A DNA stretch of 64,000 nucleotides from Candidatus Moraniibacteriota bacterium (lineage in GTDB: Bacteria > Patescibacteriota > Minisyncoccia > Moranbacterales > GWC2-37-73): positions 4,552 through 68,551 of the forward strand of contig DAIUDF010000002.1 in assembly GCA_036845785.1 (NCBI GenBank), read 5' to 3'. Of the stretch, positions 55,647-60,918 are shown piece by piece. A program made the position numbers and the translations under genes. Each line of letters opens with the position of its first letter. Position 1 is the first letter of the stretch. Under the pieces are notes generated by a model. It saw nothing but the letters and a program-made list of their open reading frames with translations, was not told the origin of the DNA and searched no databases.

Positions 55647-56057
55647 CTAGTTCGTGCATTTGCTTTCTGTTCTTCCCTGCCCAATCGCTTCTTCGGCAGT
55701 TTTGAAACAGACTACATTTTCTGGCTTGATGCGTTTGGCATAGGAGCAGGTCGGCGGATAGAATTTATTGGAATTTTTGCTGCCAACAAAAGCACAACTT
55801 GCCATATTAGTCGAAACTGAAATATTGCTGCCCAAGACCTGTTTTTGCGTCTGAAGCGTTTCCTGAGCCTCAATTTCGGCCGTTTTGGCTTCTAGTGGTA
55901 TGTTTGCAGGCTTCTCGATAATAAGCGGTTCCTGCCGCCATTTTTGGCCTTGGAGAACCCCAAACCCGAAAGAAATGGCTGAAATAAGGCAAAAAGCGAC
56001 AATTAGCACCATTTTCTGCTCATTTTTGAGGAAAAAATCTTTGATTTTAGTTAGCAT
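55647..56057 (-). CDS. membrane-anchored hypothetical protein with a Cys-rich C-terminal domain
   Basis: TM anchor; C-terminal 'CAFVGSKNSNKFY..C..C....C'. Confidence 0.4.
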   Translation of the reverse strand: MLTKIKDFFLKNEQKMVLIVAFCLISAISFGFGVLQGQKWRQEPLIIEKPANIPLEAKTAEIEAQETLQTQKQVLGSNISVSTNMASCAFVGSKNSNKFYPPTCSYAKRIKPENVVCFKTAEEAIGQGRTESKCTN

Positions 56058-56063
56058 ATTGCG

Positions 56064-56138
56064 GTTGATCCCGCACTAACTTTAAACTTACTTACTAATT
56101 AGCGCTTCGCGCTTGTTTAAAGTTAGTGCGGGATTGAC
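56064..56138. repeat. palindromic repeat element, copy 1 (21-24 bp arms, 27-nt loop)
   Basis: GTTGATCCCGCACTAACTTTAAAC ... GTTTAAAGTTAGTGCGGGATTGAC. Related copy at 60841-60918. Confidence 0.7.
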
Positions 56139-56161
56139 ATATTCTATAAATTTTATATAAT
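56134..56161 (+). promoter_or_regulatory. rpmA promoter; the -35 TTGACA lies in the right arm of the palindromic element
   Basis: TTGACA 56134-56139, 16-bp spacer, TATAAT 56156-56161. Confidence 0.5.
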
Positions 56162-56315: not shown

Positions 56316-56354
56316 TTTCACTTTTAACTTTTCACTTTTAACTTTTCATTTTTT
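56316..56354 (+). repeat. tandem 14-nt repeat (CACTTTTAACTTTT x2 + partial) forming the rpmA leader
   Basis: Direct repeats end at the rpmA ATG. No Shine-Dalgarno. Confidence 0.6.
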
Positions 56355-56813
56355 ATGGCACATCGTAAAGCAGGTGGATCTACTCAACTGGGTCGCGATT
56401 CCCGCGCCCAAAGGTTAGGAGTTAAAATTTTTGGAAATCAGAAAGTCAAAACCGGCAATATTATTGTCCGCCAACGCGGCACTAAATTCCATGCCGGTGC
56501 CAATGTCAAACGCTGCAATGATGACACTTTAATGGCAATGGTTGACGGCACAGTTAAATTTTTGACCAAAAAAGTCAGAAACTACACTGGCCAATTGGTT
56601 GTTCGCCAATTCGTAAGCGTGATTAAATCTGAAAAACCGGTAGAAATCAAATTCAAGAAAACCGGAGCCAAAAAAGCCGGTAAGAAGCTCAGAGTTAATC
56701 TTAAGACCAGAAAAGCCGGCAAGAAAAAAGGACCAAGAAAAGTCGGTGGCAAAGTTATCATTAACCGCAAGACCAGAAAACATCTCATGGCTGGCAAAGG
56801 AGTAATTAGGTAA
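56355..56813 (+). CDS. rpmA: 50S ribosomal protein L27 with a ~60-aa lysine-rich C-terminal extension
   Basis: '[24 protein letters not shown]...[10 protein letters not shown]' is canonical L27; 152 aa versus the usual ~85-95. Confidence 0.85.
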
Positions 56814-56856
56814 AATAGCTTTTAGCTTAATTAGCTTTATTAGCTTCTTAAATGAC

Positions 56857-56892
56857 ATAAAAAAGAAACCTCGCGAAAGGTTTCTTTTTTAT
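56857..56892. terminator. hairpin terminator GAAACCT-cgcgaa-AGGTTTC
   Basis: 7-bp stem flanked by AAAAA and TTTTTT. Near-identical to the hairpin at 57292-57327. Confidence 0.6.
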
Positions 56893-56914
56893 ATTTAATT
56901 ACCATACATTACAT

Positions 56915-56943
56915 TTGACAAAAAATAACTTTAATGCTATTAT
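56915..56943 (+). promoter_or_regulatory. near-consensus sigma70 promoter (TTGACA-17-TATTAT)
   Basis: TTGACA 56915-56920, 17-bp spacer, TATTAT 56938-56943. Confidence 0.55.
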
Positions 56944-56989
56944 ATTACGTTATTTTAGAAATTTGACAATCAAAAAAGAAAGGAGAAAA

Positions 56990-57151
56990 ATGATGAAAAA
57001 TTTGAACTTAGCAGATGTGGCAGGAATTGCTCTTTCATGGATTGGTGCCGGAATTATTGCATATATCGCAAAAGACGGAGTTGTTGCTGTTGTATGTGTT
57101 GCGGCTGCCTACTATCTTTCTAAATGGATTATACTGAAGGAAGAAAGTTGA
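56990..57151 (+). CDS. 53-aa hydrophobic Gly/Ala-rich peptide (bacteriocin-like or type-I-toxin-like)
   Basis: AAGGAG SD 5 nt upstream; 'MMKNLNLADVAG|IALSWIGAGIIAYIAKDGVVAVVCVAAAYYLSKWIILKEES'. Confidence 0.45.
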   Translation: MMKNLNLADVAGIALSWIGAGIIAYIAKDGVVAVVCVAAAYYLSKWIILKEES

Positions 57152-57182
57152 CAAATCTCAGTGCTGAAACATCATCTAGACA

Positions 57183-57222
57183 GGCTTCGTGAATATCACG
57201 GGGCCTTTTCTTTTTAGTAAAA
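57183..57222 (+). terminator. rho-independent terminator of the peptide gene
   Basis: GGCUUCGUGA-auau-UCACGGGGCC 10-bp stem (two G-U pairs) + UUUUCUUUUU. Confidence 0.55.
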
Positions 57223-57291
57223 AACAATAATACTACGTATTTTGTTTATATGTGAAATATTTTTATGAATCATGTAAAAATTAATTTGTAA

Positions 57292-57327
57292 AAAAGAAAC
57301 CTTTCGTGAGGTTTCTTTTTTTATATC
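57292..57327 (-). terminator. hairpin terminator GAAACCT-ttcgtg-AGGTTTC (terminates the Nudix gene)
   Basis: Same stem as 56857-56892 with a different loop; A/T runs on both sides. Confidence 0.55.
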
Positions 57328-57854
57328 CTGTTTTTTAAATATGTAATAGTTTCTATAAACCCTGCTTTTTTCTGAGCCCAAGACGATGAATTTTTTTGCA
57401 TTGAATTTGCAATCTCATTTTCAGTCATCCATTTTATCTCCTGTACTTCCCCGTCATTGAATTTTAATATGTTATTATTTTCTAGAAAATTATAATAAAA
57501 AACATGGCAGAACTCTCGGTTATTGCCACCATCATATTTTTTTATTTCTCCTTTTATTAAGCATTCTGATTTTAGTTCTATTCCTACTTCTTCTTTTATT
57601 TCACGAGCTGTTGCTTCTTCTATATTTTTTCCGGCATCAACATGTCCTCCAAAGCGCGTATCCCACTTATTAGGATCAAGATCTTTAAATGCTGATCTTA
57701 AATGCACAAGAATTTCAATGGCATTATTTTTTACTCTATAAAAATATATATGCACAGTTCTGTGCCACAATCCTTTTTCATGCACAACACTCCGCAGTTC
57801 TTTTTCTCCGGTCGGATTGCCATTTTCATCGACAATGTCTAAATATTCTTCCAT
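57321..57854 (-). CDS. Nudix hydrolase
   Basis: Nudix box 'GGHVDAGKNIEEATAREIKEEVGIEL'. Confidence 0.7.
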   Translation of the reverse strand: MEEYLDIVDENGNPTGEKELRSVVHEKGLWHRTVHIYFYRVKNNAIEILVHLRSAFKDLDPNKWDTRFGGHVDAGKNIEEATAREIKEEVGIELKSECLIKGEIKKYDGGNNREFCHVFYYNFLENNNILKFNDGEVQEIKWMTENEIANSMQKNSSSWAQKKAGFIETITYLKNRI

Positions 57855-60100: not shown

Positions 60101-60793
60101 TCAAGCATCAAGAAGGCTTTTTTTTCGTCCGTTGATAAACATGAATATGAAAAGCGCCTGAGAAGCCAAAATCCTGAGCATTTCCAGATCTTCTATTTTT
60201 TGTCCCGGGGTCTTCTTTTTTATTATTATGCAAGCTTCTATATCATCTATATATTTTGGAGAAGTTATGACAAAAAAATCATCTGATTCCATGAATTGAG
60301 CGCTTCGCTCGATTTTTTTGTAGGAAAAACTGAATGCTTCGCTGGGAATACTTTTAATTTCTTTCAAAACTTCTTTGGTTCTGAAATTGGTAAAACGCAA
60401 AACAAAATTATCAGACTTGGCTATAACACCAATGGCTTGCATAGCTGAATTGTATATTTCTTTTTGTTCCTTAGTGGTTACGTGCAGGCTTTCCGGATAG
60501 CTGAGAGTTATTTTTTCCAGAATATCCAGTTTCCGGTTGACTTCGCCTATGTATGAATACGAATGGGTCAAATCCTTGCTTATTGTGTTCACTTTGCGCT
60601 GAATATCGGTTTTCTCCGCTATGTTTTTTTTCAATTTTTTTTCCTGAAAAAGAAAAGCCATAAAACCCAAAGAACCCAGAATGAGAATGGTAAATTCTTG
60701 GGTTTGGGCTTTGTCAAAGATATAGAAGCCGTGATGGATTGCGGTGGGGACAAAAACTATTAAAGTGAAGATTACCAAATATAACCAATACAT
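60101..60793 (-). CDS. hypothetical membrane protein
   Basis: Two N-terminal TM helices and a soluble C-terminal domain; 230 aa. Confidence 0.35.
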   Translation of the reverse strand: MYWLYLVIFTLIVFVPTAIHHGFYIFDKAQTQEFTILILGSLGFMAFLFQEKKLKKNIAEKTDIQRKVNTISKDLTHSYSYIGEVNRKLDILEKITLSYPESLHVTTKEQKEIYNSAMQAIGVIAKSDNFVLRFTNFRTKEVLKEIKSIPSEAFSFSYKKIERSAQFMESDDFFVITSPKYIDDIEACIIIKKKTPGQKIEDLEMLRILASQALFIFMFINGRKKSLLDA

Positions 60794-60840: not shown

Positions 60841-60918
60841 TGTCAACCCTGCACTGACTTTTTTTTGGCTTTGCTAATTGGCGTTTTGCGCTTATAAAAA
60901 GTTAGTGCGGGGTCAACC
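60841..60918. repeat. palindromic repeat element, copy 2 (imperfect arms)
   Basis: TGTCAACCCTGCACTGACTTTTTT ... GCGCTTATAAAAAGTTAGTGCGGGGTCAACCC. Shares the ~30-nt block GCGyTTyGCGCTT..AAAGTTAGTGCGGG with copy 1. Confidence 0.6.

Follow-up and report, generated by a model that had tools for sequence, protein, structure and literature searches.

In phage genomes, Hendrix and colleagues are said to have recognised morons, autonomous units of promoter, gene and terminator that lie between genes adjacent in related genomes. The pdif modules of Acinetobacter and the Xer-dependent integrative mobile elements (IMEX) are short gene modules whose ends are formed by palindromic sites, frequently inverted and with a spacer of 6 bp. 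At the level of gene products, small membrane proteins include the two-transmembrane proteolipids Pmp3/YqaE (PF01679) and the regulators AcrZ, MgtS and KdpF. The locus considered here lies in a stretch of 64,000 nucleotides, referred to as the window, from a Candidatus Moraniibacteriota bacterium (contig DAIUDF010000002.1, positions 4,552 to 68,551 of the forward strand), in which a small cassette encoding a 53-amino-acid (53-aa) protein is found between rpmA and a Nudix hydrolase gene. The cassette appears to be a 431-bp gain at a resident bidirectional terminator, that is, a clean and fairly ordinary gene gain and not a bacteriocin locus. The explanation as a whole, namely the gain at a shared terminator of an autonomous gene for an accessory membrane protein, is considered probable.

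The cassette resembles a phage moron in being a self-contained unit located between genes that are adjacent in relatives, from whose junction it is absent, and in encoding what appears to be a small accessory protein; one member of the protein family, moreover, lies beside a phage portal gene. It differs from morons in its location, a housekeeping region of the chromosome (rpmA, Nudix, pyrG, rplI and a pyrH-like gene) instead of a phage or prophage, and in that its insertion appears to have duplicated the resident terminator hairpin. With pdif modules and IMEX it shares palindromic boundary sites with a 6-nt spacer in inverted orientation, although the hairpin is unlike dif sites by eye and has the form of a canonical bidirectional terminator, only one such site is seen, and no link to a recombinase is evident here. 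Its product is comparable to Pmp3/YqaE, AcrZ, MgtS and KdpF in size (about 50-55 aa), in its predicted helical hairpin and in its likely action within the membrane on proteins or lipid, but it has neither sequence or profile similarity to them nor a conserved partner gene.

The putatively gained segment (56859-57289, plus strand) comprises one hairpin copy and about 398 bp of new DNA, with boundaries that slide within the repeat. Its σ70-type promoter (56915-56943, plus strand) consists of TTGACA (56915-56920) and TATTAT (56938-56943) separated by 17 nt, matches 11 of the 12 consensus positions and has a TG extended -10. A Shine-Dalgarno (SD) sequence, AAGGAG, can be read from the sequence at 56980-56985, 4 nt before an ATG at 56990 and 7 nt before another at 56993. 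The coding sequence (56990-57151, plus strand, start ATG at 56990) specifies MMKNLNLADVAGIALSWIGAGIIAYIAKDGVVAVVCVAAAYYLSKWIILKEES, a 53-aa protein of an undescribed family predicted to form two membrane helices. It is followed by an intrinsic terminator of its own (57182-57215, plus strand), in which an 11-bp stem (57182-57206) with six GC pairs precedes the T-run TTTCTTTTT; this terminator is unidirectional, with a fold of -16.9 kcal/mol and a z-score of -4.85. The remainder of the insert (57216-57288) is an AT-rich spacer, featureless by detection. All the components reported in the first-pass annotation (promoter, ribosome-binding site, 53-aa open reading frame (ORF), own terminator and two hairpin copies) are therefore confirmed in the sequence, and the near-consensus promoter and SD suggest strong constitutive expression.

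The unit is flanked by two copies of a hairpin with the consensus AAAAAAGAAACCT-N6-AGGTTTCTTTTTT. Hairpin 1 (56857-56892; 15-bp stem, 6-nt loop) has the loop CGCGAA, flipped with respect to the ancestral orientation, and would be the extra copy, while hairpin 2 (57289-57322; 13-bp stem) has the loop TTCGTG in the ancestral orientation and would be the resident one. The second copy had previously been placed at 57292-57327, which is off by about 3-5 nt, and the two had been described as the same hairpin with different loops; the shared stem holds, but the loops are not simply different, being reverse complements of each other with a single mismatch. Aligned as an inverted repeat, the copies share 97% identity over 33 nt, compared with 88% for the alignment in direct orientation. 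The pair constitutes the best inverted repeat across the whole 64 kb, and the pattern AAGAAACCT-N3-10-AGGTTTCTT occurs exactly twice in the window, versus no occurrence in 100 shuffles. Folded as RNA, hairpin 1 reaches -15.9 kcal/mol when read with rpmA and -19.2 kcal/mol from the other strand, and the corresponding values for hairpin 2 are -13.7 kcal/mol (read with Nudix) and -15.2 kcal/mol (from the other strand); the z-scores of both hairpins on both strands range from -4.9 to -6.9, and none of 200 shuffles was as stable. A terminator used by two convergent genes would be expected to fold stably from either strand, as these do. Hairpin 1 is also listed by the terminator scan, and both the A-tract/T-tract arrangement around a stable stem-loop and the position between convergent 3' ends are those of a bidirectional intrinsic terminator. 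The genes concerned are rpmA on the left (56355-56813, plus strand; encoding L27, a ribosomal protein extended here at its C-terminus by a long Lys-rich stretch; Pfam Ribosomal_L27, E=2.3e-30) and the Nudix hydrolase gene on the right (57321-57854, minus strand; Pfam NUDIX, E=1.3e-15), whose stop codon (57321-57323) overlaps hairpin 2. Both neighbours are ancestral to the site and convergent in every relative examined, and the hairpin is a bidirectional terminator ancestrally shared by the two.

The direction of the change is indicated by relatives that were found through a search with the Nudix protein, the contigs of the closest ones being compared. Six other assemblies, two of them metagenome-assembled genomes at NCBI, contain this very locus with 100% identity over 541 nt, and these copies have no comparative value. 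Nudix orthologues at 63-97% identity keep the pyrG-Nudix/rpmA arrangement, and in four of these lineages the site is empty, with a single hairpin and a rpmA-Nudix spacing of 50-75 bp. They are represented by loci L030/L031 (Nudix identity 88%, interval of 75 bp), L032 (70%, 70 bp), L035/L036 (66%) and L038 (65%, hairpin at 1100-1140), with loops that read, in the rpmA sense, TTTGCG in the first two, TTCATG in the third and CACAAA, the reverse complement of TTTGTG, in the last. Across all 38 loci compared, the hairpin is confined to the rpmA/Nudix interval, in one copy where the interval is empty and in two where it is occupied. Virtual excision of 431 bp (56859-57289) restores colinearity on both flanks with L030, with L032 and with L033, a locus occupied by a different insert that was likewise excised, and the right flank of hairpin 2 is colinear with the empty sites. 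The suggestion made in the first-pass annotation, that the unit is an insertion which duplicated the resident terminator, is thus borne out by the comparison it had called for, and the alternative that it had foreseen, with relatives carrying the same peptide at the same position, was not encountered, since the homologues occupy unrelated positions. According to PyrG identity, L030, L032 and L033 are mutually 93-95% identical and the window is 89-91% identical to these three, while the empty L035 is the most distant (86-89%). As L035 falls outside the group formed by the window, L030, L032 and L033, a single gain in the lineage of the window is parsimonious.

In the ancestral locus, rpmA and Nudix would accordingly have converged on a single bidirectional terminator used by both, an A-tract/T-tract palindrome of 13 bp whose loop has 6 nt. 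At this hairpin, the lineage of the window would have gained a 431-bp segment carrying a complete monocistronic unit, leaving a full hairpin copy on each side, so that rpmA would end at hairpin 1 and Nudix at hairpin 2. With a copy on either side, the cassette is insulated from both neighbours and each of the three transcription units has a hairpin of its own. The duplication might have arisen by break repair at the extruded palindrome, in which case the side on which the hairpin-capped end was opened would decide whether the loop is kept or flipped; alternatively, a circle with one copy of the hairpin might have integrated by the Campbell route, with either orientation permitted by the palindromic arms. 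The flipped loop of hairpin 1, which matches the ancestral TTTGCG at five of six positions only when reverse-complemented, would reflect a loop inversion that the palindrome has undergone elsewhere too: of the eight hairpin copies, six have the loop TTYRYG when read in the direction of rpmA, and the two flipped ones are hairpin 1 (CGCGAA) and the empty site L038 (CACAAA). Loop inversion is therefore recurrent in this palindrome and need not be a footprint of insertion, which weakens the idea, considered at one point, that the flip is a signature of the insertion mechanism. Kelchner and Wendel reportedly described minute hairpin-loop inversions of this sort in chloroplast non-coding DNA. The hairpin considered here is similar in that its loop flips recurrently and independently of phylogeny, and differs in its bacterial host and in that, in the window, the flip is joined with the duplication of the whole hairpin.

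With regard to the product, a homology search with the single sequence retrieved two clusters only. An exhaustive profile search of 1.84 billion representatives gave 40 matches at E<=1e-3 and 13 at E<=1e-10, and a profile search of 5.8 billion sequences gave 67 clusters, all of them unnamed or annotated as 'hypothetical', among which precomputed Pfam domains are limited to GNAT, on a single fusion protein. The family is found across phyla and has the consensus L..D...IA..W.GA....Y..KD..VA.I...AAYYLSKWIILK, with AAYYLSKWIILK as its conserved motif, an invariant W17 and nearly invariant D9, Y41 and K45. AlphaFold2, supplied with the family alignment, predicts helices at residues 7-27 and 30-49 that form a two-helix hairpin (predicted local distance difference test score, pLDDT, 90.7). 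In comparisons with homologues at 58-73% identity, the proportion of nonsynonymous differences (pN, 0.18-0.25) is far below that of synonymous differences (pS), which is saturated (0.67-0.69). Thirteen clusters (P0003, P0004 and P0043-P0053, as in L018:365-700, L019:189-524 and L020:3995-4327) are tandem fusions of 102-116 aa, in which two diverged copies are joined by a linker of a few residues, the N-terminal half ending in AYYLAKWVILKGEN and the C-terminal half in AAYYLSKWIIRKE. Such fusions, with their very short linker, require both termini of a copy to lie on the same side of the membrane, and suggest that proteins with a single copy act as dimers or oligomers.

Searches for characterised relatives of the 53-aa peptide were negative. 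In Pfam the best match was a non-significant one to DUF7470 (E=0.31), nothing was retrieved from NCBIfam (0 families at E<=10), PADLOC or PHROGs, and nothing significant was obtained against PDB sequences or with Foldseek against PDB and BFVD. Neither the peptide nor the cassette has relatives in the viral-contig, phage and plasmid collections, and a literature search gave nothing relevant. Judged from these patterns, the ORF most probably encodes a real protein of a rare, unannotated family that is new to the databases yet of a familiar kind. The product would form a helical hairpin in the membrane with its termini on the same side, packed as a dimer or oligomer via small-residue motifs and with the conserved YYLSKWIILK end at the membrane interface. 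It most likely has a non-lethal, accessory function in the membrane, modulating either the bilayer or a larger protein embedded in it, a description that covers roles in immunity, exclusion and stress.

The genomic contexts of the family are diverse, and no neighbour or partner gene is conserved across its loci. Family members are found next to an ABC-F ATPase and a non-orthologous Nudix gene (L007), a GNAT acetyltransferase and a peptidase U32 (L012 and L025), tRNA-Ala (L014), an rve-family transposase (L015), a peptide deformylase (L016), MazE/MazF and a D12 DNA methyltransferase (L023), the ribosomal protein S9 operon (L026), and a phosphoribosyltransferase together with an NMO-family gene on contigs that do not look typical of the candidate phyla radiation (CPR; L027 and L028); the phage portal gene mentioned above is the neighbour in L013 (phrog_113, E=1.5e-31). 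A Nudix gene was considered as a conserved partner, as it adjoins the peptide gene in both the window and L007, but was discarded for lack of orthology between the two Nudix genes. Promoters matching at 9/12 positions or better are present in 11 of the 16 family loci, mostly 27-72 nt upstream of the start, and a terminator-like hairpin with a T-run follows the stop codon in 13 of the 16, mostly 29-58 nt away, so that the self-contained unit is a trait of the family. Its genes thus appear to be usually monocistronic and located in unrelated, often accessory contexts, and the family seems to have spread horizontally. The non-coding parts of the insert have no homology to other family loci. Flanking repeats were examined as a further family trait and rejected, as only the window (score 30 versus a null maximum of 12) and, weakly, L007 (13 versus 10) surpass shuffled controls. 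As a separate observation, in L022 the family gene is fused to a GNAT domain, the homologue P0021 (L022:689-1138) lying at the C-terminus of a GNAT acetyltransferase, and the GNAT gene of L012 and L025 is located divergently upstream; the fusion and these neighbours may point to a weak link in function or stem from an artefact of assembly or deletion.

Several points weigh against the gain of an autonomous accessory membrane-protein gene as proposed here. In the close pair L012/L025 (L012:4998-5153 versus L025:5001-5156), the peptide gene has a pN/pS of about 1.2 at a pS of 0.084, which points to protein constraint that is weak or mostly compositional at short range, whereas the flanking genes have a pS of 0.27-0.63 and ratios of 0.13-0.14; the replacements in the peptide are conservative (F/L, A/V and R/K). 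The low synonymous divergence of the peptide gene could be due to constraint at the RNA level, recent exchange or relaxed protein constraint. The function assigned has no characterised homologue behind it, and the fold searches are empty. As for the direction of change, the gain is a parsimony argument over five lineages and falls short of proof; the gene trees are discordant, with the Nudix and L27 identity matrices grouping these five differently from PyrG, and a precise deletion between hairpins would yield identical empty sites. Finally, the duplication of the hairpin has two candidate routes, both of which fit the data.

Of the rival explanations, the one that survives best is a type I toxin-antitoxin system, as suggested in the first-pass annotation, in which the 53-aa peptide would be a membrane-depolarising toxin kept in check by an antisense RNA from 57152-57290. 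Type I toxin peptides include Hok, Fst/Ldr, TisB, Ibs and BsrG, and the peptide resembles them in being hydrophobic and shorter than 60 aa, with a solo gene of patchy distribution in variable, accessory contexts. A minus-strand promoter-like sequence, TTCACA-18-TATTAT, is present at 57256-57227 (10/12), and constraint at the RNA level, one of the possible reasons for the low synonymous divergence in L012/L025, would also be compatible with such a system. Size and hydrophobicity are, however, where the agreement ends. No match is found in Pfam or NCBIfam, libraries that include known toxin families; the fold of the full mRNA (z -1.17) is not of the inhibitory kind, with the SD unpaired in the centroid structure; and the antisense stretch is unstructured (z -1.35), with its single promoter-like match within the chance rate, since 11 promoter-like sites were found versus 8.6 expected. 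Furthermore, the terminator of the peptide gene is not bidirectional, unlike that of typical type I pairs overlapping at their 3' ends, the consensus promoter and SD suggest high constitutive expression, and the protein has two helices instead of one, fused-dimer variants and conservation across phyla. The type I reading is thus unsupported and unlikely; a toxin or holin-like protein in the broader sense is a minor alternative, with a small but real share of the probability.

A more far-reaching possibility concerns the site itself. In L033/L034 (Nudix identity 63%), an unrelated ORF of 216 aa is located between Nudix and rpmA (L033:4537-5326), with its own TGgTATAAT-type promoter and two complete hairpin copies, in direct orientation and with loops TTTGTG and TTTGCG, bracketing the insert. 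This ORF has no match in Pfam or PHROGs and only a marginal one in PADLOC (Cmr1, E=0.02). That one palindrome has received two cargos with no relation to each other, and is duplicated around each, hints at an insertion hot spot. If so, the palindrome would be a site of gene capture for unrelated self-contained genes, duplicated in the process and with the loop in either orientation, in other words a terminator-based analogue of pdif modules or integron cassettes in CPR bacteria, its known cargo being the 53-aa membrane protein here and the 216-aa ORF in L033, and the small membrane-protein family would be typical mobile cargo; this is regarded as a long shot, and a dedicated recombination system at the palindrome as similarly doubtful. 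In its strictest form, with the hairpin acting as recombination site as well as terminator and the cassette as a mobile or invertible module of a site-specific recombinase, in the manner of pdif modules or integron cassettes, the proposal is improbable. The inserts in different lineages, with copies inverted in the window and direct in L033, the 16-24-nt inverted repeats that flank the L007 homologue 429-452 nt apart, and a 13-6-13 geometry that resembles lox or dif sites and falls within the 11-13-bp inverted arms and 6-8-bp spacer of Xer/dif-like or lox-like sites, would all be in keeping with it. The same geometry, however, is equally expected of a terminator, and the A-tract/T-tract arms complement each other perfectly, which is what termination at the RNA level demands. 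In every lineage the site is found where two convergent genes meet at their 3' ends, genes for a recombinase or another mobile-element function are absent from about 10 kb around it, the 64 kb contain no further copy of the hairpin, 14 of the 16 family loci have no flanking repeats, and the loop flip is also seen in the empty site L038. An inverton is unlikely because the seven independent assemblies are all in one orientation and 100% identical, with no recombinase called nearby, and a transposon or miniature inverted-repeat transposable element because the repeats are resident, being present in empty sites, the 64 kb contains one cassette and two hairpins, and the neighbours are housekeeping genes.

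Equally improbable is the reverse polarity, in which the cassette would be ancestral at the site and the empty relatives would have lost it by recombination between hairpins. The one hairpin seen in the empty sites is just what a deletion between the repeated arms of 13 bp would produce, the sole hairpin of L038 shares its flipped loop orientation with hairpin 1, and the inconsistency among gene trees leaves room for such a history. It would require, nevertheless, at least two or three independent precise losses versus one gain; one loop base and one T are the only differences between the hairpins of the window, implying a recent duplication, and the family members elsewhere are found in unrelated contexts. 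The weakest of all is the first-pass reading of the peptide as a precursor of the class II bacteriocin type, whose short leader would end in Ala-Gly, and it is effectively refuted: apart from a loose L-x-x-x-D-V-x-G pattern at the N-terminus and a Gly/Ala-rich hydrophobic core, the peptide has no GG motif, the 'AG' is not conserved (position 12 is G, V, A, M or S across the family), the double-glycine leader and bacteriocin models of NCBIfam and Pfam give no match even at E<=10, no C39-ABC transporter or immunity gene is present in about 17 distinct contexts, the tandem fusions retain the supposed leader within the chain, and residues 7-27 are predicted as one continuous helix across the proposed cleavage site.

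Other features of the region were recorded in the course of the analysis. Between rpmA and hairpin 1, at the 3' end of the gene, lies a TAG-rich block of TAGCTT repeats (56813-56850), the sole TAGCTT-N1-6-TAGCT cluster in the window. It was considered as part of the cassette and rejected for the window, as it is present in the cassette-free L032 and the differently occupied L033, and it is treated as ancestral flank outside the insert. It aligns to L007:5786-5820, directly to the left of the L007 cassette, over 31 of 35 bases with two gaps (score 18 versus a null maximum of 13.5), and an inverted block is found to the right of that cassette (L007:6243-6273), overlapping the stop of the non-orthologous Nudix gene. 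TAG is frequent in both blocks, occurring in each of the three frames in the L007 one; their resemblance could represent convergent low-complexity sequence, such as a multi-frame stop block, or a shared target.

Upstream of rpmA, a perfect 12/12 promoter (TTGACA-16-TATAAT, 56134-56161) leaves a leader of about 190 nt, which ends, directly before the start codon, in a tandem TTTCACTTTTAAC repeat (56316-56351). L27 itself has 152 aa, of which about 70 constitute the Lys-rich C-terminal extension, and this contains an internal 61-nt direct repeat (56654-56714 and 56720-56780, 70% identical) at the DNA level; the extension is kept in relatives, where the protein is also 152 aa long. Two copies of a long hairpin, at 56070-56128 and 60848-60913, have arms of about 18 bp (CCCGCACTAACTTTAAAC/GTTTAAAGTTAGTGCGGG) and a conserved loop, TRCTAATTRGCG.TT.GCGCTT, and each shortly precedes the start of a hypothetical gene on the minus strand (55647-56057 and 60101-60793, respectively). 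They may constitute a shared cis-regulatory element or leader RNA, and have no Rfam match at the gathering threshold, at which a scan of the whole window gave 0 hits.

Current understanding is not overturned by these observations. The locus would represent a moron-like gene gain of textbook quality, in a CPR chromosome rather than in a phage, and offers a before-and-after view of the gain of a single gene in a streamlined genome of the Patescibacteria (CPR), in which three transcription units are kept insulated. The family to which the gene belongs, a previously unannotated one of about 50-aa two-helix membrane proteins that appears to move between lineages, would be a tractable target for the study of small proteins.

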